64,000 nucleotides of DNA from positions 2,404-66,403 of the forward strand of contig JAFGCT010000028.1 of NCBI GenBank assembly GCA_016932505.1, given 5' to 3'. The stretch's first letter is position 1; each line of letters opens with the position of its first letter. A program made the translations under genes and the position numbers. Origin of the DNA: Candidatus Peregrinibacteria bacterium. GTDB taxonomy: Bacteria; Patescibacteriota; Gracilibacteria; UM-FILTER-43-11. This document shows, piece after piece, positions 2,515 to 64,000 of this stretch. A model generated the notes under the pieces. That model made no database searches and was not told the origin of the DNA. It was given only the letters and a program-made list of their open reading frames with translations.

Positions 2515-4785
2515 ATGAAAACAATCTTCAAAAAACTCACAAAAGGAATAATAATCAGTTTACTGCTGATATTTACACTGAATCTGACTTCGTTTCAGAT
2601 AGGTGGAAATAGCCAAGAAAATAGAATACTTACTACAAGTGTGAACGCTGATGAGATTACAGATGCGGATTTAGGGATTGGAGCTGAAACAACTGATTCA
2701 AATGCCAATGTAGTAGACCAATACTTAGCCGAGCCTGCAGGAGATACTGGCACTACAACCAACGCTACAACCAGCACTGAAGGAACTGGAAGTGGAGGCG
2801 AACCTGATCTAAGTAATGCAACGCCAGCCGCTAATGCAGAAGCAGAGCAACCAGGAGAACCTTTTGATATTGAGGAATTTATGAAGAGTATTCAGAAGGG
2901 GGCGACTTATATTCACAGACTTTTTGCTCCTTTGGTGAATTTTTTCTCATTTAATATTGGTAATTTCCTAAGTAATGACCATATTTTTGGTGGAGCTATG
3001 GGGCTTATGCTGAAAAAAATATGGATAGTCAGCAGAAATCTCGTAAATATCGCTTTCGTACTGATCCTTCTTTTTCTTGCATTAAAAGAAATATTTTGGA
3101 TTAAGGAAGAAGGCGGAACGGACCTGAAGAAAAGTTTACTTACTTTTGTACTACTTTTAATTGCAGTGAATTTTTCGTGGCTTGTTACAAAAGTTGTTTT
3201 AGATGCGGCTAACATTGCCACAAATGTCGTGTTCGCAATTCCTATGGGTGTAAGTGGTGCGGGTGCGGAACTATTGCCGAAAGATTGTGATGTTCTGGAT
3301 TGTCAAAATGACGACAGTGCTGAGACTCAGGCAGAGTGTGGTGCTGCAGATAAATATGTATTAAAAGGTTCATGTTACCCTAGTAGTATTTTTGCTGCTA
3401 ACACGGGTGACTGGAAAAGCCCCGAATACCAATATCTAGAAAAAGATCAATGTACCGATTATGATAAGAAGTATCAAGGAAATCCGGACAGTGCATTTAA
3501 TCAGGATGGTAGTGTAAATCCGAATGCGAGCGCCGATAATAAAGAGCTTCAAAATAAATCAACTTTCTGCTGGGAAACAATGGATTTTGCGAAATATGAC
3601 CAAAATACTTCCGTTATATATCTAACATACGGCATGGCTAGAATCCAGAATATTACCGGAGCAACTTCCAGAAGCAATGCTCCCGTTCAGGTTTCTATTG
3701 CAATATTGTTTTCACTGATTATTCAGGCTGCCTATACAATTGCTTTAATGGCGTTATTTATTGCCCTTGTTATTCGTATGGCCGTACTCTGGATATTTGT
3801 AGCATTTTCGCCATTTATGGTACTTATGTTATTTACTGATGTACTTGGTTCACTCGCGGAAAAAGCCAAAGGAACAGCGGATTTCTCCGGTTTCCTTAAA
3901 TGGGCTTTTGTTCCAGTTAAGGTAGCAGCTGTATTTACCATTTCATTCCTTATGGTTTCCGCTGGACAATCTATGGGAAGTACTGATGTAACAAATATAA
4001 ATACCTTTTCAGCAAGTGGAGCTAATACTACATTTAAAATATTTAATGTCGGTTCGTTATTTATGAATATGGGTGGAATTGAACAATTTATATGGCTCCT
4101 TATTACTCTTGTGGTTCTTTGGATAGGGGTATTTGCAGTTCTTGGAGATATGCCGATTATTAAATCTGTTACCGATAAGATGAAAGAATACGGTACTTCA
4201 ACTGCCGGACTTATTGCAAAAGCTCCATACTGGGCACCTATTATGCCTATGGTAGACCCAAGTACCGGTAAATTTAAATTTGGTTCTTATGCTAAGGAAT
4301 ATTCCGGACTTGATTTAAGAAAGGTATTAACAGAAGCTAAAGAAAAGGCAACTGGTGATAATTTGAAGAGTAAGGCGGAAAAGGTGACTGAACCAGTGCA
4401 AAAAGAAATTAATGATTTAGTTAAGACTGGAAATACCGAAAAAGCTTATTCTAAATTCCTTGAATCTATCGGCGGAGACAAATATTCAGTAAATAAAGAA
4501 GGTATTGAAAAACTTACTAAATCAATGGATAAGCTTGATGCAGATACAAGACGTAAGTTAATTGCTTTCCATAAAGATCAAATGAAGGGTATTGAAACGA
4601 AGAAACCTTCCACCGCTGATGTTCAGGCAGATGAAGCAGCCAGAATAGCTGAACGCGATAAGCAAAGTGGTTCAACACCTACAACGCCATCAGGAGGAAC
4701 AACTTCATCAGGAGGAACAACTTCATCAGGAGGAACAACTTCTACTGCCCAGGAAAATCCACCAGCAGATAATACCGGACAATAG
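2515..4785 (+). CDS. polytopic membrane protein, possible VirB6/TrbL-like channel component
   Basis: N-terminal signal/TM segment and at least 6 long hydrophobic segments. Cys-rich extracytoplasmic loop. Low-complexity C-terminus. Lies next to a T4CP-like ATPase. The family assignment is an inference from topology and context only. Confidence 0.7.
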   Translation: MKTIFKKLTKGIIISLLLIFTLNLTSFQIGGNSQENRILTTSVNADEITDADLGIGAETTDSNANVVDQYLAEPAGDTGTTTNATTSTEGTGSGGEPDLSNATPAANAEAEQPGEPFDIEEFMKSIQKGATYIHRLFAPLVNFFSFNIGNFLSNDHIFGGAMGLMLKKIWIVSRNLVNIAFVLILLFLALKEIFWIKEEGGTDLKKSLLTFVLLLIAVNFSWLVTKVVLDAANIATNVVFAIPMGVSGAGAELLPKDCDVLDCQNDDSAETQAECGAADKYVLKGSCYPSSIFAANTGDWKSPEYQYLEKDQCTDYDKKYQGNPDSAFNQDGSVNPNASADNKELQNKSTFCWETMDFAKYDQNTSVIYLTYGMARIQNITGATSRSNAPVQVSIAILFSLIIQAAYTIALMALFIALVIRMAVLWIFVAFSPFMVLMLFTDVLGSLAEKAKGTADFSGFLKWAFVPVKVAAVFTISFLMVSAGQSMGSTDVTNINTFSASGANTTFKIFNVGSLFMNMGGIEQFIWLLITLVVLWIGVFAVLGDMPIIKSVTDKMKEYGTSTAGLIAKAPYWAPIMPMVDPSTGKFKFGSYAKEYSGLDLRKVLTEAKEKATGDNLKSKAEKVTEPVQKEINDLVKTGNTEKAYSKFLESIGGDKYSVNKEGIEKLTKSMDKLDADTRRKLIAFHKDQMKGIETKKPSTADVQADEAARIAERDKQSGSTPTTPSGGTTSSGGTTSSGGTTSTAQENPPADNTGQ
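4690..4743 (+). repeat. 18-nt tandem repeat x3 inside the CDS (encodes SGGTTS x3)
   Basis: tcaggaggaacaacttca at 4690, 4708 and 4726 (the last copy ends in t). Confidence 0.9.
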
Positions 4786-4811
4786 AAAAACAACAAATTA
4801 TTTAAACATTC

Positions 4812-4846
4812 GTAGGGGCGTCCCGCTTAGCGGGATCCCTACTTTT
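4812..4846 (+). terminator. intrinsic terminator after the 756-aa gene
   Basis: Nested hairpin gtaggg-gcg-tcccgc-tta-gcggga-t-ccctac followed by tttt. Confidence 0.7.
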
Positions 4847-4994
4847 GTCTGAACTGTGATTTATGCGATTTAAATGATTTTCTTATGATTAAAAACAATC
4901 CATAAACTTTATTTCATAGAGTTAGTAATATGAAATATTGATACGGATAAAAATCATTATCAATCAGTACAATCAAAAATATCACAGTTCAGAC
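4847..4994. repeat. 14-bp perfect inverted repeat bracketing a ~120-nt AT-rich spacer between convergent genes
   Basis: gtctgaactgtgat (4847-4860) pairs with atcacagttcagac (4981-4994). The right arm abuts or overlaps the stop codon of the 852-aa gene. Confidence 0.7.
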
Positions 4995-7590: not shown

Positions 7591-7926
7591 ATGTCCAATG
7601 TCCAATGTCCAAATTTCAAATTAACTGATTATCAGACTAGGCTTCAAAGTCTGCTTTTAAAAATTCCCAAAGGAATGGTTTCAACATATAAGGAATTAGC
7701 TAAAGCAATGGATACCCGTGGCTATAGATTTATCGGACAATTGCTTAATAAAAACCAATACCCTGACAAATACCCCTGCTATAAAATAGTAAAATCAGAT
7801 CGAAGTTTAGGTGGATTTGCCTTTGGCGCCAAGGATAAAATTAGACGTCTGAAAAACGATGGAATATCTGTAAAAAATGGAAAAATCCAGGATTTTAAAA
7901 ATGTCTTGTTTAAATTTGTGCAATAA
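7591..7926 (+). CDS. MGMT-family (methylated-DNA-protein-cysteine methyltransferase DNA-binding domain) protein with variant active-site motif
   Basis: IPKGMVSTYKELA...YPCYKIVKSDRSLGGFAFG aligns with the canonical ...IPCHRVV...G.LGGY layout of PF01035-type domains. Confidence 0.75.
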   Translation: MSNVQCPNFKLTDYQTRLQSLLLKIPKGMVSTYKELAKAMDTRGYRFIGQLLNKNQYPDKYPCYKIVKSDRSLGGFAFGAKDKIRRLKNDGISVKNGKIQDFKNVLFKFVQ

Positions 7927-8604: not shown

Positions 8605-8818
8605 AGTATTTTTGTTATTAATATTTATTGATCTATTAATTATATCATTTTTACCAAATTAAATCAAGTATTTTATAATGTTTAATTGTAAGTATTCATT
8701 AATATATTGACATTTAATGTTTTATATGATTTAATATATTCCATTTGGTTAATTTAAACGTCATAATCCTATGTGCGTTTATTCTCGCCAGATAAGATCA
8801 TTACAAGGAAGGTGTAAA

Positions 8819-9298
8819 ATGAAAAAGGTTTTAATGTGTCTGACAAGCGTTTTGTTTGTCACATCCGCCCTGGCGGCACTGCCGCCCCCCACCCCGAATG
8901 AGAAGCCCGCTGAAGAAAAGAAAATCTTCTCCGGATTTTTCATTGTTTCGGAGGACAAAAGTGAGTTCGAACTCATAGACGTCGAAACTCTGAATGCCAT
9001 CTACAACGGCAAAAAACCTCCGCCCGGAACCTGCCCACTGAACAAAGTCATCGGGGTGAACGAGGAGTATTCAACCGAATACTTCGGATCCCCCTACAAG
9101 ATGACTCTCTCGAAGAACGTCAACAGCCTGGTATTCACAGGAGTCCGTCCGGATGCGACTATTGTAATGAAGCCGCTTTATGTTGGCACCGATGTCTACA
9201 ATGGATGCAACTTCTCCGGCCGACTGATGGTCGCGGCTGACGAAGAGGATTTTATCGAGATCCTTCTCGACAGAGCCAATGTGGTCGAAGAAGAGTGA
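8819..9298 (+). CDS. secreted hypothetical protein with GC3-rich (foreign-looking) codon usage
   Basis: RBS aaggaaggtg lies upstream of the ATG at 8819. Signal peptide MKKVLMCLTSVLFVTSALAA. Hand GC counts are 32/60 (8881-8940) and 30/60 (9121-9180), against 17/60 in a sampled AT-rich stretch elsewhere in the window (62101-62160). Confidence 0.7.
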   Translation: MKKVLMCLTSVLFVTSALAALPPPTPNEKPAEEKKIFSGFFIVSEDKSEFELIDVETLNAIYNGKKPPPGTCPLNKVIGVNEEYSTEYFGSPYKMTLSKNVNSLVFTGVRPDATIVMKPLYVGTDVYNGCNFSGRLMVAADEEDFIEILLDRANVVEEE

Positions 9299-11771: not shown

Positions 11772-12599
11772 ATGATTGGTATATTCGATTCAGGTTTTGG
11801 CGGGCTTACAGTAATGAAGGAATACTTAAAAAAGTATCCTGAGTTTGATTATATGTATTTAGGAGATCAGGCAAATATGCCTTATGGAAGTCATTCTAAA
11901 GAAAGGTTGAACAAATTAGTTGTTCAGAATGTTGATTTTTTGGTTAATAAAGGATGTAAACTCATTATTATTGCCTGTAACACCGCTTCAGCGGATGCAC
12001 TTAGGCATGTTCAGAATATATATAAAGGTAATCCTACTATACTTGGCGTTTTGGTTCCTGCGGTAGAGAATTCCTTAAAAGAAACAAGGTTTGGTAATAT
12101 TGGTGTTATTGGTACTCGCGGAACAATCAATAGCAATGCCTATAAACGAGAAATTGAGAAATATGAAAATGACTTATATAAACCCACTGACAAACGGGCT
12201 AGAGAATCTGTAAAACTATATCAGCAAGCTTGTCCGCTATTAGTGCCCTTAGTAGAAGAGGGATTAATTAAAGCAACGGTAACCCGAATGATTTTAAAGA
12301 ACTACCTTAGACCGCTTAAAAACGCTCACATAGATACTTTAATACTTGGATGTACTCACTATCCCCTACTTCAAAAAGAAATTACTAGAATAATGGGTAA
12401 AAACTGCAAGATTATTTCTTCAGCACAGGCGGCTACTTATGCCATAGGCAGTTACTTTGAAAATCACCCAGATGTTCTGAATTTAATTACAAGGAATGGA
12501 AAACGCACCTATTATACAACAGACTGCCCAGAGAGATTTGCAGATTTAGGAAAAAGGTTTTTAGGTGAAGTGATTGTAGGTGAAAAGGTGGAGATTTGA
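11772..12599 (+). CDS. murI: glutamate racemase
   Basis: IGIFDSGFGGLTV, IIACNTASA and LGCTHYP motifs, with both catalytic Cys contexts. Confidence 0.9.
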   Translation: MIGIFDSGFGGLTVMKEYLKKYPEFDYMYLGDQANMPYGSHSKERLNKLVVQNVDFLVNKGCKLIIIACNTASADALRHVQNIYKGNPTILGVLVPAVENSLKETRFGNIGVIGTRGTINSNAYKREIEKYENDLYKPTDKRARESVKLYQQACPLLVPLVEEGLIKATVTRMILKNYLRPLKNAHIDTLILGCTHYPLLQKEITRIMGKNCKIISSAQAATYAIGSYFENHPDVLNLITRNGKRTYYTTDCPERFADLGKRFLGEVIVGEKVEI

Positions 12600-12716
12600 G
12601 ATTTGTGATTTGTGATTTGTGATTTGAGACCTGCCTGCCGGTAGGCAAGGTTTGTGATTTGAGATTTGAGATTTGAGACCTGCCTGCCGGTAGGCAAGGT
12701 TTGTGATTTGAGATTT
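12593..12716. repeat. heptamer gatttg(t/a) array containing a 49-bp direct duplication, each copy carrying a GC-rich hairpin core
   Basis: gatttga/gatttgt units start at 12593. gagacctgcctgccggtaggcaaggtttgtgatttgagattt is present at 12626-12667 and 12675-12716. The cores cctgcctgccggtaggcaagg are at 12630-12650 and 12679-12699. Confidence 0.9.
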
Positions 12717-12741
12717 GTCATTTATAAAATAAATCAGTTTT

Positions 12742-12789: not shown

Positions 12790-14232
12790 TTATTTCATAC
12801 CAAGGATTTTAACTACTATTTTCGCAACTTCTGCGCGAGTAATCCGTTTTCCAGGTCCGAATGTGCCATCTGGGTAGCCTGCAACAATGTCATATGTCTG
12901 TGCATAGCCAACGTATCTAGCAAACCATGCGTTCTCATCTACATCAGGGAAGTTAGGAATTGAGTCATCTGAACCTAAGCCAGCTGATAATAAAAGAATC
13001 TTTAAGGCTTCAGCACGGTTAACTTTTCCATTTGGACTAAATACATTATTTTCATATCCTTTAATAATTCCTTTTTCTTTAGCTGCAATTATATAAGGAG
13101 CATACCAAGATGAAGTAGATACATCCGCAAAAGGAGAATAAGTTGCAATAGGATCTATAGAAATTCCAAATGCTTTTGTAGCGATTTTTGTAAGTTCAGC
13201 TCTTGTAATTTCATCGTTTGGAGCAAATACACCTTCTGATTTACCGCTTACAATACCTAGTTCATAAATCTGTTTAATATAAGCCTCTGCCCAGTGACCT
13301 GCAATATCATCAAAGCCCATAATTGTCTTAACTGCTTTTTCTACCGGACTCTCAGTCTTTTTACTATTATCCATCCACCATGTACCGCTACCAGAGCTTC
13401 CTCCTGAAGGAGTAACAGCAGTAGTAGTTGTAGTGGTTCCACCACCAGAAGTATAAGCAGCAAATGAAGAAGCTGCACAAGTATAGATTACCAACTGACC
13501 ACCACTAGCAGTAGCGGAAGTAGCCATAGGACTTGCTACACCATTTGTACAACTGGCAGCAGGACTTGTTGAAAGACTGCTTGTTGAGAAACCTTCACCG
13601 TAATGTTTTACAGTTATATAAATTGAAGTGCCATCTGGTACACCTGGGACAGGGATTGTAATCTGAACTGGGATATTGAATAACAATTTATAACCGATAG
13701 AACCAAAATCTAATGAAGCAAGTAATGTATTACTTCCTAGCTGTGAAGATAGAATTGTACCAACCCCTGCTCCAATTGCTGAAGCGTTAAATGTTCCTCC
13801 TCCACTTTTTGTAATCTGTAAACCAGAAGGAAGTACAATAGTAGCACCACCTGAGCTAAATGCAACAGTACTCGTCATAGTAGCTGATGTTGCAGCGGTA
13901 GGAGCACCTACTATAGTTGCCTCACCTGAACCAATGCTTGTAACAGTAGTTGGATTGCTATAATTGTAATACCCTTTAGCGTTTGAAGTTGGACTATAAT
14001 TATAAGCATAACCATAACCCCAACCCCAACCTGCAGAACCATAACCATAACCATAAAGGAATGACCCTGGACTAGCTGCGCTACTGTATGGATCCGGTGA
14101 AGTAGCACGCCAAAATGCGGCAAAAGTGCCTGGAGACAGCATAGTAAAGACAAGTGCAAACATTGTAATGGTTGCAAATACTTTTCCAAGTGCCTTTTCG
14201 CTTTTGAAAAAGTCTTTAAATAACTTAGACAT
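12790..14232 (-). CDS. SLH-domain cell-surface protein (three C-terminal SLH repeats)
   Basis: N-terminal signal/TM segment. Gly/Tyr/Trp low-complexity stretch (GYGYGSAGWGWGYGYAYNY). Thr-run linker (GGGTTTTTTAV). Three SLH-like repeats (FDDIAGHWAEAYI..., FADVSTSSWYAPYI..., FPDVDENAWFARYV...TRAE). Confidence 0.85.
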   Translation of the reverse strand: MSKLFKDFFKSEKALGKVFATITMFALVFTMLSPGTFAAFWRATSPDPYSSAASPGSFLYGYGYGSAGWGWGYGYAYNYSPTSNAKGYYNYSNPTTVTSIGSGEATIVGAPTAATSATMTSTVAFSSGGATIVLPSGLQITKSGGGTFNASAIGAGVGTILSSQLGSNTLLASLDFGSIGYKLLFNIPVQITIPVPGVPDGTSIYITVKHYGEGFSTSSLSTSPAASCTNGVASPMATSATASGGQLVIYTCAASSFAAYTSGGGTTTTTTAVTPSGGSSGSGTWWMDNSKKTESPVEKAVKTIMGFDDIAGHWAEAYIKQIYELGIVSGKSEGVFAPNDEITRAELTKIATKAFGISIDPIATYSPFADVSTSSWYAPYIIAAKEKGIIKGYENNVFSPNGKVNRAEALKILLLSAGLGSDDSIPNFPDVDENAWFARYVGYAQTYDIVAGYPDGTFGPGKRITRAEVAKIVVKILGMK

Positions 14233-41930: not shown

Positions 41931-41936
41931 AATTTT

Positions 41937-42028
41937 CGTATTGGGGATCGTATTGGGGATCGTATTGGGGATCGTATTGGGGTTAAGTCATTCCATTCGA
42001 GCGCCCATTCGAGCACCCATTCGATTTT
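41937..42028. repeat. two 12-mer arrays: cgtattggggat x3.8 and cattcgagc(g/a)cc x2-3
   Basis: Read directly from the sequence. The array runs up to the stop codon of the downstream epimerase gene. Confidence 0.9.
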
Positions 42029-48384: not shown

Positions 48385-48798
48385 ATGACAACAGGCGAAC
48401 TACCCGTGGTGGGTGTAGTAAAACTACATCGGAATGTTATTGCCAATCATTTTGGTGACGAAACGAAGTACACTCGTGTACTTATGTCCCAAGAGGCATT
48501 CGCTGGGCTCGTAAAGAGCAACTTTCCCAATTCCACTACTGCGGGGGAAATTCCCGGAACAACATTTGTTACTAAAGTTCCGACAGTAAACATTATGACG
48601 CCGATTGGCTTTGAGAACTCTCGGGAGCAACCGAATGAAGTAAAGGTTGTAACGCGAATCACGGGCAAAAAGGAATCCAACCCGGTTACGTTGCAAATAA
48701 TTTCCGTAGAGGCATCTGGACCCACAATCAAGCGTCCGCGACGCCAAATCAAACCTGCTCTTACAATAGTCATAGACCCCCCGCACAAAAACTACTAA
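48385..48798 (+). CDS. hypothetical protein in a GC-enriched segment (coding status uncertain)
   Basis: RBS aaggag lies 8 nt before the ATG. The region is open in three overlapping frames on both strands. Hand GC count is 29/60 for 48601-48660. Confidence 0.45.
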   Translation: MTTGELPVVGVVKLHRNVIANHFGDETKYTRVLMSQEAFAGLVKSNFPNSTTAGEIPGTTFVTKVPTVNIMTPIGFENSREQPNEVKVVTRITGKKESNPVTLQIISVEASGPTIKRPRRQIKPALTIVIDPPHKNY

Positions 48799-50317: not shown

Positions 50318-52189
50318 ATGCAAGACCCAAACCAACACCCACCTCAACACCCAAAATTCAAACCACCAAAAAGGAATAATAGTTTTATGTATGTCCTTAT
50401 TTTCGCTTTGATTCTTACAATTATTTATTACGCGACTGGGCCAAAAAATGTTAATGAAGATACGGCTCTTACCGAAATTCCGATTAGTCAATTGGTTCAG
50501 GAATACAGAGACGGACAGTATTCAGCTATTGAGGTTAAAAATAGTAAAATATACGCGACTAATAATGAGCAAAAAGAATTTTTAGCTTATCGTCCGGAAG
50601 GAGAAAGTATTAAAGACCTTGGACTAAATGAGCAGGGCAACCCAACACCCATTACAATTATAAGCACAGAGGCAAGCGCCTTTTGGCTTAATGTTCTTTC
50701 AAGCTGGTTACCTATAATTCTATTTATTGCGCTTATTATTTTTATGGCTAAACAGCTTGGAAAAGGGGCGAACAGCGCATTTTCATTTGGCAAATCTCAA
50801 GCAAAAGTCTATTCAAAAAATGGAAAACACAAAACAACTTTTAAAGATGTTGCAGGAATGGAAGAGTCTAAAGATGATTTAGTTGAAGTTGTGGACTTTT
50901 TAAAACACCCTAAAAAATACACTAAGATTGGAGCTAAAATTCCTCGAGGAGTATTACTCGTTGGAGCTCCTGGAACAGGTAAAACATTACTTGCTCGAGC
51001 TGTTGCCGGTGAGGCAGGTGTCCCCTTCTTCAGTATTTCCGGTTCTGAATTTGTGGAAATGTTTGTCGGTGTAGGTGCTAGTCGTGTAAGAGATTTATTC
51101 CAAAAGGCAAAGAAAAATGCGCCATGCATAATCTTTATAGATGAAATTGATGCGGTTGGTCGTCAGCGTGGTTTTGGAATGGGTGGCGGACACGACGAAA
51201 GAGAGCAGACGTTGAATCAGATCCTTACAGAAATGGATGGTTTTGAGAATGAAACAAATGTAATTGTAATGGCTGCAACCAATAGGCCAGATGTACTGGA
51301 TGCCGCTTTAATGCGACCAGGACGTTTTGACAGACGTGTAATTATTGATATGCCCAATCTTGTCGACCGTGAGGCAATTCTAAAAGTTCACGCACGTAAC
51401 AAACCACTAGATAAAAGTGTAGATTTAAAGAGTGTAGCTAAACAGACACCTGGGTTTTCCGGTGCAGATATTGAAAATCTTATTAACGAAGCAGCTATTC
51501 TGGCTGCAAAAAATAATAGGAATAAAATAATGCATTCTGATTTGGAGGCTTCTATTGAAAAAGTCGGGCTTGGTCCTGAAAAGAAATCACGCAGACTTTC
51601 CGATGAAGAAAAGAAAATCACCGCTTATCATGAGGTCGGTCACGCACTTGTGGGTAAATTACTACCTGGTTGTGACCCCGTACACAAGGTTTCTATTATC
51701 AGTAGAGGCATGGCTCTTGGTGTTACTTGGTTTTTACCGGAAGAAGATAAGCATCTAAAATCAGTTTCTAAATTCAAAGATGAATTATGCTCATTACTTG
51801 GAGGTTATATGTCCGAAAAACTTACCTTTGGTGAAGTAACCACAGGAGCGAGTAGCGACTTACAACGTGCAACCGAGATTGCAAGAAGCATGGTGATGGA
51901 TTATGGAATGAGTGAAGACCTTGGACCTGTAATTTTTGGTCAAAAATCAATGGCCAGATTCTTAGGTGCAGACCTTGGCTCAAAACCAAATTATAGTGAG
52001 GAAGTAGCAGCAAAAATTGATAATGCTGTTTCCAAAATTCTTACTGATGCTCAGGAAAAAACTGAAAACCTTCTTATTAAAAATAAAGCGCTTCTTAAAG
52101 AGATTGCGGAATCACTACTTAAGAAAGAGGTTTTGGATAAAAAAGAGTTTGATAGTTTTTTTCCTAAAGAAAAGACGAAGAAGAAATAA
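50318..52189 (+). CDS. ftsH: ATP-dependent zinc metalloprotease FtsH
   Basis: [16 protein letters not shown], the SRH region and the HEVGHAL zinc site. The N-terminus ([18 protein letters not shown]) is encoded by a cacc/caa-type repetitive stretch. Confidence 0.95.
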
Positions 52190-52229
52190 TTTGTGATTTG
52201 TGATTTGTGATTTGTGATTTGTGATTTGT
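52188..52229. repeat. pure direct heptamer array: aatttgt + gatttgt x5
   Basis: Read directly from the sequence. It starts at the ftsH stop codon. Confidence 0.95.
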
Positions 52230-55902: not shown

Positions 55903-55995
55903 GGGATTATTAGAATTATTGAGATTATTGGGATGATTGAGATGTTTATAGCATTTCCCAATAATCATAATAATCCTAATAATCTCAATAATCAC
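55903..55995. repeat. inverted arrays of the gattattgN 9-mer (same family as 1994-2080)
   Basis: gggattattagaattattgagattattgggatgattgagatg ... cccaataatcataataatcctaataatctcaataatcac. Confidence 0.9.
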
Positions 55996-56005
55996 AACAA
56001 AATAA

Positions 56006-59956: not shown

Positions 59957-61051
59957 TTAGACATTAAATTTAAAATGCATAATATCCCCATCTTTAACAA
60001 CATATTCCTTACCCTCCATACGCATTTTCCCTTTTTCTTTGGCTGCAACTTCACTTCCACAATCTACAAAATCCTGATAACTAATTGTTTCCGCTTTTAT
60101 AAAACCTCTTTCGAAATCCGTATGAATAACACCTGCGGCCTCGGGAGCTTTTGCGCCTATACGAACTGTCCATGCTCGGTTTTCCTGCTCACCAGCAGTA
60201 AAGTAAGTTTGCAGACCAAGTAAGCGGTAGGCGGATTTTATTACTGCATTTAATCCACTTTCTTTTAAACCTAATTCTTTCAGATATTCTTTTGCTTCTT
60301 CGTCTGAAAATGAGACCAAATCCTCTTCTACTTTAGCAGAAATAGGCAATATTTCTTCAAAATTACCTAAATTAAGGTCTTTTTTTACCTTTTCTGCATC
60401 AAAATCAGCTAATTGGCTTTCTTTTAGGTTTGCAATATATAAAAACGGCTTATTTGTAAGCAAAAACAATGATTTTACAAATTTTTTCTCCTCATCTGTG
60501 AATTCCATGTTAATCACGAGTTTTTCGGCTTCCAGAGCCTCTTTTAACCGACTTAACGTACTAGTATTCTTTATAAGCTCTTTGTCACCGCTTTTGGCCT
60601 TTTTCTCGGTCTCAGAGAGCTTCCTTGAAACAGTATCCAAATCTGCCAATATTAACTCCAAATGAATAACGTCCATATCAAGTTTTGGGTTTATTCCACC
60701 ATGAACATGAATAACATCCGGATCTTCAAAAAAGCGAATTACCTGAGCGATTGCATGACATTCACGTATATTTGCGAGGAATTTATTACCAAGCCCCTCC
60801 CCTTCTGATGCGCCTTTTACAAGCCCTGCAATATCTACGAACTCAACAACGGCTGGGATAGTTTTTTTTGGCTTAACAAGCTCTTCCAGCTTCTTTAGGC
60901 GTTCATCTGGAACCTCTACAATACCCACATTAGGATCTATTGTACAGAATGGGTAGTTTTCCGCTTGAGCGCCTTTTGTACGTGTTAAAGCGTTAAAAAG
61001 TGTTGATTTTCCTACGTTTGGCAGACCGACGATACCGATTTTTAGGGACAT
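59957..61051 (-). CDS. ychF: redox-regulated ATPase YchF (Obg-like)
   Basis: [19 protein letters not shown]...TIDPNVG... and the C-terminal TGS-like region. Confidence 0.95.
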
Positions 61052-61262
61052 AAATTATTACAAGATTAATTATTACAAGATTAGTTATTACAAGATTATT
61101 TTATATTATGATTGGTGATACTACAATTGAAACCGATTATTTCCTTCCGAAGGCGCGGTGCCGGCACCGCGCCTTCGGAAGGTTTGTTTATTTGATGTAT
61201 AACCAATCACAAATAAATCTTGTAATCTACTAATAAGCGAAGTGTTAATCTTGTAATAATCC
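61052..61262. repeat. composite element: attacaagatt x3 arm, a central perfect 40-nt GC-rich palindrome, and an inverted aatcttgtaat x2 arm
   Basis: Left arm 61055-61100. Palindrome ccttccgaaggcgcggtgccggcaccgcgccttcggaagg at 61143-61182. Right-arm units at 61216-61226 and 61247-61257; the latter encodes the last codons and stop of aroD. Confidence 0.9.
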
Positions 61263-61952
61263 CCAAGCCTCTTTCAACTCCCCCACTGTTAATTGACCCG
61301 GTGCGGATGATTTGGATTTGGATATTGGCGCAAACATAATTGTACCACCAAGGGTAGGAGTAAGAATTCTGGAAAGGGCGCCTTTTTTACCCATAGCAAT
61401 GATTATATGCGGGATTTTTTCGGCTTGTAGATGCTTTGCCAATGAAATTGCCTGAATAGTATCTGCGTAAGTTTTTGCCATAACCGAAATCTTGACGATA
61501 CACGCCCCGGCGCGCAGGTCTGCGCCCTTTTTCTTCATTTCTTTAGCTTTTTTTAAAAGGACGGATAGTGAAGGTGTTTTTTTGAAGTTATGATATGAAA
61601 GAATGATTTTTGATTTTTGATTTGTGAATTGTGATTTTAAATCAGAAATCCCAAATCTCAAATCACAAATGTCCAAAGGTAAATCTATATATTCGGCTCC
61701 GTTCTTAGATGATTCAGTAAGTAATTTTAAGACTTCTTTATCACTTCCTTTAAAGCATCCCATTTCGTTAGGTTTTTTACATACACAAATTACCGGTAAG
61801 GGCTTGTTTTTAAGCAATTCAGCTATATCCAAATCCTTAATATAATCCAGCCAGATTTCCGCCATGTCGGCATGTTTTTTTGCCAAGACCATAGCCTTTT
61901 TTGCCTCTTTCATTGTTTTTGCCTGAATTGGAATACATAATTTAATTTTCAT
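61245..61952 (-). CDS. aroD: type I 3-dehydroquinate dehydratase
   Basis: LCIPI..., AEIWLDYI, ILSYHNFKKTP, KISVMAK (Schiff-base Lys context), IIAMGKKGALSRIL, SAPGQL. Confidence 0.85.
   Translation of the reverse strand: MKIKLCIPIQAKTMKEAKKAMVLAKKHADMAEIWLDYIKDLDIAELLKNKPLPVICVCKKPNEMGCFKGSDKEVLKLLTESSKNGAEYIDLPLDICDLRFGISDLKSQFTNQKSKIILSYHNFKKTPSLSVLLKKAKEMKKKGADLRAGACIVKISVMAKTYADTIQAISLAKHLQAEKIPHIIIAMGKKGALSRILTPTLGGTIMFAPISKSKSSAPGQLTVGELKEAWGLLQD
61606..61672. repeat. intragenic inverted heptamer array (gatttgt family) inside aroD
   Basis: gattttt gattttt gatttgt gaattgt gatttta | aatc agaaatc ccaaatc tcaaatc acaaatg. It is translated in frame as ...ICDLRFGISDLKSQFTNQKSK.... Confidence 0.85.
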
Positions 61953-62042
61953 TTATCATTTTTCAATTATCATTTAATGAGAACAATATTAATATTAAAT
62001 GTTAAATGACAATTATTAAATGACAAATGTGTTTTTATTCAC

Positions 62043-62071
62043 TTGACAAAATACCGATTATACGATACAAT
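62043..62071 (+). promoter_or_regulatory. near-consensus sigma70-like promoter
   Basis: ttgaca (62043-62048), a 17-nt spacer, then tacaat (62066-62071). Confidence 0.55.
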
Positions 62072-62287
62072 TCACATCCAAACATCACGTTTGGGTGCCT
62101 GTTATTTGGGCACTATTGATCATTTAAAACATTGGAAGTAAGGGAAATCTTTACAATATTCCGCTTAAGTAAGCCTGTTCTGATTTTTTACCTATGGTAA
62201 GAAAAACCGGAAACGGGCGCTTGTGAATATATAAATACTTCCCTACGCAATTACTAAGTTGATTGGCAATACCAAGTAAAATACCCC

Positions 62288-62340
62288 CCATTGACTTCCA
62301 ATTGACTTCCGTAGACCTAGTCAATAGGACGTCAATCGGA
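62288..62340. repeat. inverted arrays of the attgacttcc / gtcaat unit (reverse complement of the 11701-11722 family)
   Basis: ccattgacttccaattgacttcc-gtagacc-tagtcaataggacgtcaatcgg. Confidence 0.85.
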
Positions 62341-62451
62341 AATTTATAGGGAAAAAAGTATCTTATTTAGTATTGCCATCAACAAATAAACAAACCTGCT
62401 TGCGTGCAAGTGGGAACTGACCCGGAAACGGGAAAGGAAAGGAATTTAGTC

Positions 62452-63390
62452 ATGAAAAAATGTAACAACAAAACAGGAGGAGGAGCCATGTTTACGAAAC
62501 TCTCAACCGCGGTCTTTTTGGCCGCAATGTTCTTCGCGTTCAGCAACTCTGCCAGCGCCGCCTACTGCGACCGCTACGAAGGAGGCGAGGCAGACAAATG
62601 CGGTAGCGGAATGTCGCAAGCCAAAGCCCTCCCGGGCTACGGCGCTATGACCTCAGCCACAGCCAAAGCCCCCTGCGAAGCGGCGAGAGCCAACGCGCTG
62701 GACCAATGTACCATGAAAGCCGGCGGGTCTGATGCCTTTATTGGCGGCTGCAAGAAAACCGTCAAAGCCTACAAGTGCCCCGATGGCGGACCTGTTACAG
62801 TTTCCGCAGTCTGTGGAAACGGGAAGTGCGAAAAGGGCGAGACCAAGAAGAATTGCCCGAAAGACTGCGGTTCGACACCTCCCCCAGTGGTGAGGAAGGG
62901 CAAAAAGTGCGGAAACGGGGTATGTGACGCAAGCGAGGATTTCGCCACCTGCCCGGAGGACTGCCACTGCGGTGACGGCACGTGCGACCCCACGATCGAC
63001 GAAACGTTCTGCACCTGTGCAGACGACTGCAAAGATTGTCCCGAAGGCTGTGAGGGGGCCGAGCCCCCGCCGTGCAGCGACTGCATGGAAGAAGCATTGA
63101 AGAAGTTCTGGGAAGAACACGTTCAGTGCCAGGACAGCACGAGTACCTATCATACGGTTCTCAAGACCATGGGATGCGAGGGCTTCTTCAAAGCCAACAA
63201 GCTGACTTTCTACTCACCCCCGAAAGTCGATATGGAAGCCATCGCCAAAGCAAGTGCCGGCAACGGCTCCATCCCCAGATGGTTCGTCATCTTCGTCACA
63301 GTCGCTCTTTCCCTCAGCTTCCTCTGCCTGCTCATCCTCGTCTTCCGTAAAAAGAAGAACCCGAACACCACCGGCGGTAGCAACCGGTAG
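62452..63390 (+). CDS. GC-rich gene: secreted Cys-rich repeat protein with C-terminal TM anchor (start 62452 or 62488)
   Basis: RBS-like aaggaaagga / ggaggagg upstream of the two ATGs. Signal peptide FTKLSTAVFLAAMFFAFSNSASA. Three CG(N/D)GxC...C(P)xDC modules. C-terminal WFVIFVTVALSLSFLCLLILVF-RKKK. Hand GC count is 37/60 (62521-62580) against 17/60 (62101-62160). Confidence 0.7.
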   Translation: MKKCNNKTGGGAMFTKLSTAVFLAAMFFAFSNSASAAYCDRYEGGEADKCGSGMSQAKALPGYGAMTSATAKAPCEAARANALDQCTMKAGGSDAFIGGCKKTVKAYKCPDGGPVTVSAVCGNGKCEKGETKKNCPKDCGSTPPPVVRKGKKCGNGVCDASEDFATCPEDCHCGDGTCDPTIDETFCTCADDCKDCPEGCEGAEPPPCSDCMEEALKKFWEEHVQCQDSTSTYHTVLKTMGCEGFFKANKLTFYSPPKVDMEAIAKASAGNGSIPRWFVIFVTVALSLSFLCLLILVFRKKKNPNTTGGSNR

Positions 63391-63482
63391 TAATTGCGTT
63401 TCCGCGCTTTAAACGCGGATACGTTCAATGTTCTAATGTTAACGTGGGGCAAGGCCAAGTGCCTTCGCCCCCTCTAACCCCT

Positions 63483-63521
63483 CAGGGATCATCGCTTTAC
63501 GCTTTGGTCCCTGTTTTTTTT
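63483..63521 (+). terminator. intrinsic terminator after the GC-rich gene
   Basis: caggga...tccctg stem followed by 8 T. Confidence 0.7.
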
Positions 63522-63530
63522 GTCTGGATT

Positions 63531-63692
63531 GCGATTAACGATTAACGATTTACGATTTACGTTGTACGGGGGGGGTTGTGATGGGTGGATTGGAATTACA
63601 TCAAATACACATTTATCAGTAGAGACGCGATTAATCGTGTCTCTACGGTATTAAATCGTTAATCGTACAACGTTAATCGTAAATCGTATAAC
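63531..63692. repeat. composite element: CG-anchored heptamer arm, a central hairpin, and an inverted arm
   Basis: gcgattaacgattaacgatttacgatttacgttgtacg (63531-63568). gtagagac-gcgattaatcgt-gtctctac (63619-63646). attaaatcgttaatcgtacaacgttaatcgtaaatcgtataac (63651-63692). Confidence 0.9.
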
Positions 63693-63725
63693 AAAAAACC
63701 CCTCACATTCCTGCAGGGGGTTTTT
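63693..63725. terminator. bidirectional intrinsic terminator
   Basis: aaaaaacccct...agggggttttt. Confidence 0.6.
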
Positions 63726-63750
63726 ATCTAAATATTAAACTTACTTTCTA

Positions 63751-64000
63751 CTATTCATATTCGTTGCCATCTAGCAAACTTGCAAAAAAGCCTTTCTTTT
63801 TTTGGGGCGCAGATGGCGCTTGTGAAGCACCAGAACCTCTTAATTGTGCTAATAATTCATCAATTGTTTTTGACTGAGTTGCATTTTGAAGCTCAAGTTC
63901 TCTTACTCTATCCATATTTTCCACAGCAAGCTTTTTCTGCTCTGCTTTTGTAGATTCTAATTGTTCAATTTTACGCTCAAGTGCCACTTTTTCGTTTTCC
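63751..64000 (-). CDS. coiled-coil protein, 5'-partial (frame open to window edge)
   Basis: The frame of ORF 63751..63987 stays open to nt 63999 (…ENEKVALERKIEQLE…). Heptad-like charged sequence. Confidence 0.55.
   Translation of the reverse strand, partial: ENEKVALERKIEQLESTKAEQKKLAVENMDRVRELELQNATQSKTIDELLAQLRGSGASQAPSAPQKKKGFFASLLDGNEYE

Follow-up and report, generated by a model that had tools for sequence, protein, structure and literature searches.

The subject of this analysis is a gene at positions 62488–63390 (plus strand) of a 64,000-nt stretch of DNA (hereafter the window) from Candidatus Peregrinibacteria (Peribacteria). We lean towards reading it as a native, fast-evolving surface-protein gene of a Peribacteria-class bacterium of the Candidate Phyla Radiation (CPR), whose composition is actively maintained and which is expressed by way of a promoter and a leader of ~410 nt and would, in the mechanism that we favour, yield an "armoured" messenger RNA (mRNA). 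The sequence-only reading of the same DNA had taken the gene for a domesticated foreign one. This origin is not supported: the GC excess is confined to the coding sequence (CDS), the synonymous sites are saturated relative to an orthologue, no donor of the N-terminal domain was found, and homologues of the same GC-rich composition, named beforehand as what would speak against a foreign source, are present in the lineage (L001, L086, L002 and L004). Loci of relatives are labelled L001–L009 and L083–L090, and proteins P0001–P0012. The gene and the parts of its product are listed below.

62488–63390, plus strand: CDS of 300 amino acids (aa), secreted Cys-rich single-pass membrane-anchored protein (translation, composition)
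62452, plus strand: alternative in-frame start, giving 312 aa (P0001)
62488–62559, plus strand: predicted signal peptide MFTKLSTAVFLAAMFFAFSNSASA, residues 1–24, ending at ...ASA/A (read from the translation)
62560–62790, plus strand: orphan N-terminal six-Cys domain, 51% identical to that of P0002
62812–62868, 62908–62964 and 62968–63030, plus strand: three CG(N/D)GxC...C(P)xDC modules, CGNGKCEKGETKKNCPKDC, CGNGVCDASEDFATCPEDC and CGDGTCDPTIDETFCTCADDC
63028–63084, plus strand: CxxC-containing Cys cluster CKDCPEGCEGAEPPPCSDC
63280–63387, plus strand: C-terminal transmembrane (TM) helix WFVIFVTVALSLSFLCLLILVF (63280–63345), then RKKK in the basic tail RKKKNPNTTGGSNR

The CDS has a GC content of 0.58, a GC content at third codon positions (GC3) of 0.70 and a third-position C content (C3) of 0.48; the corresponding window values are 0.35 for GC and ~0.27 for GC3. 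Mean GC of the window is 0.347 (standard deviation 0.062, 200-nt windows), and 62401–63500 is its sole ~1-kb stretch with GC of at least 0.48. The other open reading frames (ORFs) of the window have GC3 values of 0.20–0.39, save for two islands at 8771–9298 (0.59) and 48385–48798 (0.45). The earlier hand counts of 37/60 G+C at 62521–62580 and 17/60 at 62101–62160 proved exact. Likewise, the spurious ORFs noted across the gene are present (antisense ORFs of 166, 105 and 100 aa, a sense-strand ORF of 92 aa, and shorter ones), several of them long and on both strands because stop codons become rare.

The start codon listed for the gene, GTG 62404, probably has to be moved. The ORF from this GTG to 63390 has GC 0.566, with 0.50, 0.51 and 0.69 at the three codon positions (GC3 0.687). 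The likely start is ATG 62488, which is preceded by a Shine-Dalgarno sequence, and the 12 in-frame codons from ATG 62452 to 62487 have a host-like GC3 of 0.33, whereas every segment after 62488 has 0.68–0.83. The GC excess begins at ATG 62488 and ends at the stop codon. GC is 0.37 in the leader, 0.40 in the spacer that follows it and 0.58 in the CDS of the window, and 0.33, 0.29 and 0.57, respectively, in L001. Since a host-like, non-conserved spacer lies less than 200 nt away on the same predicted transcript, regional processes are disfavoured, i.e. block insertion, gene conversion, and replication- or transcription-linked mutation bias.

The codon usage may be described as a synonymous "dialect" in which two-fold pyrimidine boxes and four-fold boxes favour codons ending in C, and G-ending codons are raised for Lys, Glu and Gln. 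From background to gene, the third-position shares change from 0.12 to 0.48 for C and from 0.15 to 0.22 for G. NNC makes up 78% of the two-fold pyrimidine codons, against ~26% in the background, and four-fold sites hold 0.52 C and 0.21 G, where the background has ~0.11 of each. G-ending Lys, Glu and Gln codons amount to 47% in the gene versus ~0.3 in the background; their share reaches 0.74–0.89 in the GC-rich surface-protein genes of L001, L002 and L086.

The orthologue in L001 shows that this composition is not a transient state. L001 is a 2-kb contig of an independent ENA assembly with ~2x coverage, and carries the gene of P0002. The two proteins are 41% identical by BLASTP, 51% in the N-terminal domain and 43% over the whole alignment. 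The L001 gene has GC 0.57–0.58 and GC3 0.67 between flanks of 0.29–0.39 GC. Its in-frame TAG at 1478–1480 may be due to a sequencing error, mark a pseudogene or allow read-through. The frame runs on for 127 codons to a TM helix and a basic tail, ending at the inverted-repeat arm, so that the architecture is the same as in the window. An assembly chimera is excluded by this independent assembly with the same junctions.

At amino acids identical between the window and L001, 11 of 39 four-fold third positions agree (0.28), and composition predicts 0.26. Agreement at the level of composition implies that the synonymous sites are saturated, and saturation in turn implies that the GC-rich usage is not the un-ameliorated remnant of one old insertion. 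As both genes are GC-rich, both lineages have kept the composition through a complete turnover of neutral sites. A dialect that runs from start to stop only and outlasts synonymous saturation is therefore not a legacy of a donor; a force that acts on the coding region maintains it.

Counterparts at the syntenic site extend this picture. In L086, L002 and L004, Cys-rich surface-protein genes adjoin the dehydroquinase (aroD-ychF) on the strand opposite to it. L086 (46.5% GC) encodes a protein that contains 30 Cys and two CGNGICEKGERTTCPKDC modules and in which RRRD comes after a TM helix; it matches the window protein at E = 2e-12, and the GC3 of its gene is 0.81 versus ~0.5 in the neighbours. 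L002 (53% GC) has four such genes with GC3 of 0.83–0.93, against 0.55–0.65 in housekeeping genes, and L004 (49% GC) has three with 0.74–0.79 and a shortened fourth with 0.65, against 0.53–0.57. The products of all these genes are signal-peptide proteins that contain Cys and are mostly TM-anchored. Interposed among the GC-rich genes of L002 is a short-leader lipoprotein gene with a GC3 of 0.44, implying that the effect operates gene by gene and not regionally. A BLASTP comparison of the window protein with that of L002a was not significant, and a word-index search with the L002/L004 domain alignment gave no match. What stays constant at the site is the frame rather than its cargo.

Recent horizontal acquisition from a GC-rich donor, with later fitting of host signals, would account for the atypical composition and codon usage, for the raised share of G-ending Lys, Glu and Gln codons, as in GC-rich genomes, and for the CGNGxC modules, which are common to proteins apparently from GC-rich bacteria, including P0006 (TIGR03382). 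However, the GC excess stops at the start and stop codons, the L001 orthologue is GC-rich despite saturated synonymous sites, and syntenic GC-enriched counterparts exist in L086, L002 and L004. No mobility genes, transfer RNA (tRNA) sites or insertion scars were found at the gene, the flanks of which are a leader and a 3' untranslated region (UTR) conserved in relatives. Moreover, no donor homologue of the N-terminal domain occurs among 1.84 billion representatives. This explanation is largely refuted, and we give it very little credence.

A second possibility is recurrent cassette replacement, in which GC-rich surface-protein alleles are repeatedly imported by recombination in the leader and 3' UTR, for example from GC-richer Peribacteria (up to 58% GC), and have no time to ameliorate. 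Such a process would fit the way in which a conserved leader and 3' frame enclose CDSs that are very divergent or not homologous, and also the signs of recombination or duplication at the L004 locus. Relatives with conserved gene order around ychF (L002–L009) range from 36 to 53% GC; since these relatives have YchF identities of 74–84%, the clade must have undergone a large genome-wide shift of synonymous composition. The wide range extends to 58.5% in the Candidatus Peribacter riflensis genome, and strain variation of Cys-rich extracellular proteins is on record (PMC4736985). Against the cassette explanation, GC3 in the 47–53% GC relatives is still 0.2–0.3 above background, and above any known Peribacteria genome average; the N-terminal domain is known solely from two AT-rich genomes; and the boundaries lie at start and stop codons, not at the conserved blocks. 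We consider it unlikely, albeit the strongest of the rivals.

GC-biased gene conversion, or some other bias tied to recombination, at a surface-antigen locus that resembles vls in recombining very often, could draw on the tandem paralogues, duplicated leaders and shortened copies in L002 and L004, and on the fast evolution of the protein (41–51% identity, compared with 84–90% for the leader). On the other hand, no second copy or silent cassette was found, as blastn and tblastn of the CDS within the window returned the gene itself only, the bias does not spill into the adjacent non-conserved spacer, and an AT-richer gene is interleaved among the GC-rich ones in L002. In addition, G at the four-fold sites of L002 falls from 0.39 to 0.21–0.26 while C rises from 0.40 to 0.64–0.67, which argues against a strand-symmetric shift from A/T to G/C. 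This explanation seems improbable. As a separate observation, positions 7600–9140 of L004 (minus strand) contain near-identical duplicated leaders, a shortened gene with a 3' end like that of a different paralogue and, adjoining the dehydroquinase, an orphan fragment from the 3' part of a gene, all signs of recent recombination or duplication.

The native origin favoured here is also consistent with the flanks of the CDS, which carry the following features.

62043–62071, plus strand: predicted sigma-70-type promoter, TTGACA-17-TACAAT, 11/12 consensus matches
62078–62113, plus strand: two hairpins at the predicted 5' end, CCAAAC/GTTTGG and GTGCC/GGCAC (folds)
62127–62262, plus strand: conserved rod-like core of the leader RNA, ~135 nt, 123/136 positions (90%) identical to L001, fold z = -3.4
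62263–62474, plus strand: non-conserved 5' UTR spacer with host-type repeats and a long hairpin (62264–62378), 48% identity to L001 with many gaps
62475–62485, plus strand: 11-nt Shine-Dalgarno sequence AGGAGGAGGAG, ending 2 nt before ATG 62488 (sequence reading)
63400–63521, plus strand: 3' UTR with a variable hairpin, the motif ACGTTCAATGTTCT..AACG, a GC-rich hairpin, and a terminator hairpin with T8

The predicted promoter lies 416 nt upstream of the likely start codon, implying a long leader (~410 nt) through which this near-consensus promoter would drive the gene. In order, the leader would comprise two hairpins at its predicted 5' end, the conserved rod and a freely evolving spacer. Its start is colinear in the window, L001, L002a and L086, in the order CTTGACAAAA, -10 hexamer, hairpin 1, GGGTA and hairpin 2; all three relatives conserve the first two of these elements. 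The first hairpin begins ~1–2 nt past the predicted transcription start. Both hairpins have undergone compensatory changes: hairpin 1 reads CCAATC/GATTGG in L002a, and hairpin 2 reads GTACC/GGTAC in L001 and GGGC/GCCC in L002a and L086. The alignment with L001 runs from the promoter onward, and 155 of the 185 positions at 62078–62262 are identical (84%). Since the leader is 84–90% identical despite saturated synonymous sites, it is under purifying selection.

The spacer has GC 0.40 at 62276–62487 and contains the tandem repeat ATTGACTTCCA and the inverted pair I6; no promoter-like site was found within it. Downstream of the gene, the 3' UTR folds into three hairpins (z = -4.6), and ACGTTC.AT.GTTCT..AACG is common to the 3' UTRs of the window and L001. 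Two other interpretations of the leader were discarded. A leader peptide was rejected as the 10-codon ORF at 62195 is shortened to 5 codons in L001, and a separate small RNA gene was set aside, on sequence alone, given that there is neither a terminator after the rod nor a promoter in the spacer. Rfam gave no leader match at 61000–64000 (E ≤ 1) and none in the leaders of L002 and L004 (E ≤ 0.1). The leader pattern GGAAGTAAGGGN{10,30}CTTAAGTAAGCC had 0 matches in genome and metagenome contigs, a leader 22-mer had 0 matches in viral contigs, and no copy of the leader precedes island 1 or island 2.

A segment of the leader is complementary to the region of the stop codon, as follows.

62245–62256, plus strand: 5' arm ACGCAATTACTA, at the 3' end of the conserved rod, a 12-nt perfect complement of 63388–63399 (I17)
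63388–63399, plus strand: 3' arm TAGTAATTGCGT, including the TAG stop codon

Complementarity was judged by exact complements, as RNAduplex with whole leaders against 3' UTRs was uninformative (huge interior loops). The 12-mer has no occurrence in the window beyond these two arms. L001 has the same pair at 11 nt (I12), L002a has a different 10-nt pair at the homologous leader position and the stop codon (AACGACTACT / AGTAGTCGTT), and the orthologous L002b and L004b have a third pair of 9 nt (TTTCTAGCT / AGCTAGAAA). In every case with complementarity the 3' arm overlaps the stop codon. A length of 12 nt is unremarkable in a repeat-rich genome, so the case rests on recurrence and arm replacement and not on the window alone. 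As the arms differ yet stay complementary, we read them as a putative RNA pairing rather than a recombinase site, whereby the leader segment could pair with the stop-codon region.

Alternatively, the 12-nt inverted repeat might be a DNA inversion site that switches the spacer and CDS in phase variation. Perfect inverted repeats bracket the spacer and CDS and leave the promoter and leader outside, the repeat is conserved in L001, and the product is a surface protein. However, the arm sequences differ between L002a and L002b, so that one recombinase could not serve both; the orientation is the same in all five loci, no recombinase is among the locus neighbours, and the arms are short (9–12 nt). 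Of all the alternatives we find this the hardest to credit.

RNA pairing would fit the mechanism that we prefer, in which the mRNA of the gene is armoured, long-lived and in heavy use. Protection from AU-directed ribonucleases and spurious AT-rich signals would come from the structures at both ends, including a 3' UTR with three hairpins, from the 5'-3' pairing and from a coding body poor in AU. The features beside the dialect are the 11/12 promoter, the 11-nt Shine-Dalgarno sequence, the 5' hairpins, the possible 5'-3' pairing and the triple-hairpin 3' UTR. Taking these features together, we favour an mRNA of this protected kind, which would be comparable to surface-layer (S-layer) transcripts.

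The simplest cause would be classical translational selection, in which C-ending codons are the optimal ones and no gene is expressed more highly than this one. All pyrimidine-ending and four-fold boxes do prefer NNC (0.78 and 0.52), the Lys, Glu and Gln codons shift less (0.47), and the promoter and Shine-Dalgarno sequence are strong. However, HU, GroEL, GroES, IF3 and L20 in related loci lack the dialect, and MetK, SAHH and FtsH in the window have codon usage at background. The G-ending share of Lys, Glu and Gln in L001, L002 and L086 is the opposite of that in highly expressed genes (0.06–0.22; GroES 0.46), and a likely abundant surface protein encoded in the window at 12790–14232 falls below background. 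We regard translational selection as a rather improbable explanation of the dialect. As it fits poorly and no extra-structure signal was found, this leaves selection on the nucleotide composition of the coding RNA itself. The gene at 12790–14232 (minus strand) deserves notice in its own right: it encodes a 480-aa protein with an N-terminal hydrophobic segment, presumably secreted, and has an unusually high GC2 (0.53) and an unusually low GC3 (0.20), with 0.50 T and 0.04 G at four-fold sites. Its synonymous bias is opposite to that of the gene described here; possibly this is an "AT dialect" used under high expression.

Several results count against the interpretation we prefer. HU, GroEL, IF3 and L20 (L085 and L089, which are other genomes) use A-ending Lys, Glu and Gln codons with a G fraction of 0.06–0.22; HU prefers T-ending four-fold codons, and GroES is at background in Lys, Glu and Gln (0.46 G-ending). 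These codons differ from the dialect, which makes plain translational optimisation doubtful, as far as comparison genes from other genomes allow. Synonymous shuffling indicated that the mRNA has no more structure than its composition gives (z = -1.06), and stability selection offers no obvious explanation for the preference of C over G at four-fold sites. Comparison of the N-terminal domains of the window with those of L002 and L004 by hhalign detected no relationship (probability 4%), so that the proteins at the site, as judged by sequence comparison, are not all demonstrably homologous. The recombinant, shortened copy L004a is without leader/stop complementarity. Finally, an upstream complement of at least 12 nt to the stop region occurs in 5 of 57 window genes and is not rare here, three of these being A/T low-complexity matches and one a host tandem repeat.

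On a wider scale, the Peribacteria may possess, for certain surface-protein genes, a separate post-transcriptional expression regime that consists of a conserved promoter and structured leader, leader-stop pairing and a selection-maintained CDS dialect in genomes of 35–53% GC. We offer this only tentatively and would not count on it. In such a regime the leader may be built around a lineage-wide RNA module outside Rfam.

A candidate for this module was noted. It has no Rfam entry and consists of (A/G/U)AGUAGCGAG, a 6–7 bp stem, an insert of 4 to ~130 nt, the closing strand and CCCUAUUGA, with eight different yet complementary stem sequences. It occurs in L001 at 293–429, L003 at 8672–8792, L009 at 2419–2540, L002 near 8990 and at 4720–4879, L004 near 8550, 7381 and 5192, and also in L083–L090. 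A short hairpin form lies just upstream of RNase P RNA (L083), infC-rpmI-rplT (L089), thioredoxin (L085) and GC-rich surface-protein genes, and long forms stand in tandem in L086. The leader rod of the window, GGAAGUAAGGGAA...UUCCCUACGCAA at 62133–62256, may be a diverged copy.

Another recurrent element concerns the translation start. In every GC-rich surface-protein gene, a further ATG with a Shine-Dalgarno sequence of its own lies in frame 12–22 codons upstream of the Met of the signal peptide, and the resulting extensions are rich in Lys, Arg, Asn and Thr. These sites are at 62452–62487 in the window, near 8724, 7376 and 4367 in L002, near 8288, 7001 and 4872 in L004, and at 6428 in L086 (oriented).

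The signal peptide, the three modules, the CxxC region, the TM helix and the RKKK sequence described by the sequence-only reading were all seen in the translation. Cys makes up 26 of the 300 residues (8.7%). In the predicted architecture, a signal peptide precedes a disulfide-rich ectodomain, which one TM helix anchors in the membrane, with a short basic tail on the cytoplasmic side. The protein is probably an adhesin or envelope protein. In a single-sequence AlphaFold2 model (predicted local distance difference test score 44.7), the TM helix alone was modelled confidently. Searches of Pfam and NCBIfam (E ≤ 10) gave no real match, the two weak matches being far below cutoff and in the C-terminal TM region; the curated profile of the Myxococcus cysteine-rich repeat (TIGR02232 / Pfam DUF4215) did not match, and neither did any PDB sequence when the module region was searched. 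No Pfam, NCBIfam or PDB entry exists for the CGNGxC module, which therefore cannot be placed in a curated family.

Among 5.8 billion clustered proteins, P0002 is the sole one to share the N-terminal domain. An HMMER profile search with this domain against the 1.84 billion representatives mentioned above retrieved P0001 and P0002 only, apart from three spurious repeat translations; with no outside relative of the domain, no donor is visible. P0003–P0012 match the modules alone, as arrays in unrelated secreted proteins (E = 6.5e-21 to 5e-4), and P0006, a TIGR03382 (Myxococcales-type) protein, is among them. Like these arrays (CGNGxCExGExxxxCPxDC), the window protein carries the same four-Cys module of ~19 residues in tandem and is secreted; unlike its three modules, they have 4–12 copies and unrelated flanking domains.

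The closest described proteins are the extracellular Cys-rich proteins of Candidatus Peribacter riflensis, of a type regarded as a hallmark of Peribacteria; they are large multi-domain proteins averaging 1,655 aa, contain 7.2 +/- 2.4% Cys, lie in a 14-gene cluster, and have a predicted role in surface attachment, weak similarity to Myxococcus-type Cys repeats and strain variability (PMC4736985, Anantharaman et al. 2016). The protein in the window belongs to a bacterium of the same class and shares the signal peptide, the high Cys content and the predicted surface role, as well as the weak resemblance to such repeats and the strain variability. It differs in its length (300 aa, as opposed to ~1,655 aa), in its orphan N-terminal domain, in its 35% GC genome, as opposed to 58% GC, and in being single-copy within the window. 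We conclude that the gene encodes a small member of the Peribacteria Cys-rich extracellular kind with an orphan N-terminal domain. The CDS-confined GC and C3 dialect, the conserved leader and the leader/stop complementarity are not described in PMC4736985 or in the literature searched.

In lactobacilli, the S-layer genes have a long structured 5' UTR and biased codon usage, and their mRNAs have half-lives of ~15 min (PMC3666127). The gene would resemble Lactobacillus slpA in its strong predicted promoter, its predicted long structured 5' UTR with a base-paired 5' end and its putatively abundant surface protein, next to its atypical codon usage. Unlike slpA, its leader is longer (~410 nt) and remains 84–90% conserved as the protein diverges, its bias runs against the genome composition, and there is complementarity between leader and stop codon. 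With genomic islands it shares the atypical GC and codon usage and the surface-protein cargo; in contrast to them, its anomaly is confined to the CDS, it is syntenic in relatives and without mobility machinery, and it shows no amelioration despite saturated divergence.

The vlsE locus of Lyme Borrelia has ~50% GC in a 28% GC genome and is conserved across species. It offers a parallel, in that a gene for a surface protein has remained GC-rich throughout a lineage despite an AT-rich genome; vls, however, has adjacent silent cassettes and a whole-locus bias, whereas here there are no cassettes in the window and the bias is limited to the CDS. The variant-specific surface proteins of Giardia have a Cys-rich CxxC ectodomain, one TM helix at the C-terminal end and, after it, a very short basic tail in the cytoplasm. 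The analogy is one of architecture only, as these proteins are eukaryotic and have no sequence relationship to the one described here.

The immediate neighbours of the gene are aroD (type I dehydroquinase), ychF and an uncharacterised short ORF, and further cellular genes nearby encode a phosphorylase, an RNHCP protein, RecO and FtsX. YchF is 74–84% identical to proteins of metagenome-assembled genomes labelled Candidatus Peregrinibacteria or Peribacteria, in which the order GalU...FtsX-RecO...RNHCP-phosphorylase-YchF-DHquinase is kept. The host-type repeats, near-consensus promoter and terminator that had been reported in the flanks were all recovered, the promoter with 11/12 matches and the terminator as a hairpin with T8. 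The repeats are as follows.

61945–62029, no strand assigned: host-type AT-rich tandem and palindromic repeat block upstream of the promoter (Tandem Repeats Finder periods 7 and 14; inverted pairs I3, I4 and I11)
63532–63697, no strand assigned: host-type heptamer (CGATTAA) arrays, inverted around a central hairpin (I1, I2, I5 and I15)

GC is 0.17 at 61953–62042. Arrays similar to the gene-flanking repeats fill many other intergenic regions of the window. Packed tandem arrays of 7–18 nt, often in inverted pairs, are found between genes at 1994–2077, 12591–12723, 41936–42024, 52189–52229, 55905–55997, 61053–61098 and 63532–63697. TAATCTTGTAATAA stands directly before the start codons of YchF (three copies) and the phosphorylase, with no obvious Shine-Dalgarno sequence there.

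The small island 1 gene (8819–9298, plus strand) encodes a signal peptide and has the same C-ending dialect. The bias that it had been said to share with the present gene is thus real (GC3 0.59, C3 0.37), but the common foreign source at which it was taken to hint is not supported. Its protein is an orphan without a homologue in 5.8 billion clusters. Island 2 (48385–48798, plus strand) is another small GC-enriched gene, with GC3 0.45. In the relatives, GC-rich two-gene units (GC3 0.77–0.93) at L002 926–4367 and L004 1749–4872 encode a lipoprotein-like protein and a protein whose last residues read ...VLLGLRF or ...VLMGLRF, similar to the signal at the C-terminus of outer-membrane beta-barrel proteins; a CPR bacterium would not be expected to have such an ending.

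Atypical GC content and codon usage are routinely read as horizontal transfer, and any compositional method would flag this gene as foreign. It is nonetheless syntenic, framed by conserved native UTRs, and has kept its composition past saturation in genomes of 35–53% GC. The case therefore calls for caution with island callers and with binning filters that discard such segments as contamination. The leader and the wider AGUAGCGAG...CCCUAUUGA module are candidate new regulatory RNAs of the CPR. If a separate expression regime exists, codon composition would belong to a dedicated system of control or protection and would not record ancestry; candidates for such a system would be armoured long-lived mRNAs, a translation programme dependent on the state of the tRNAs, or leader-recruited antitermination that shields C-rich transcripts. 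If selection on the coding RNA is indeed the cause, the gene would be an unusually clean case of nucleotide-level selection overriding AT mutational pressure in a reduced CPR genome, and its dialect would serve as a pointer to the surface proteins in which uncultured episymbiont-like bacteria invest most.

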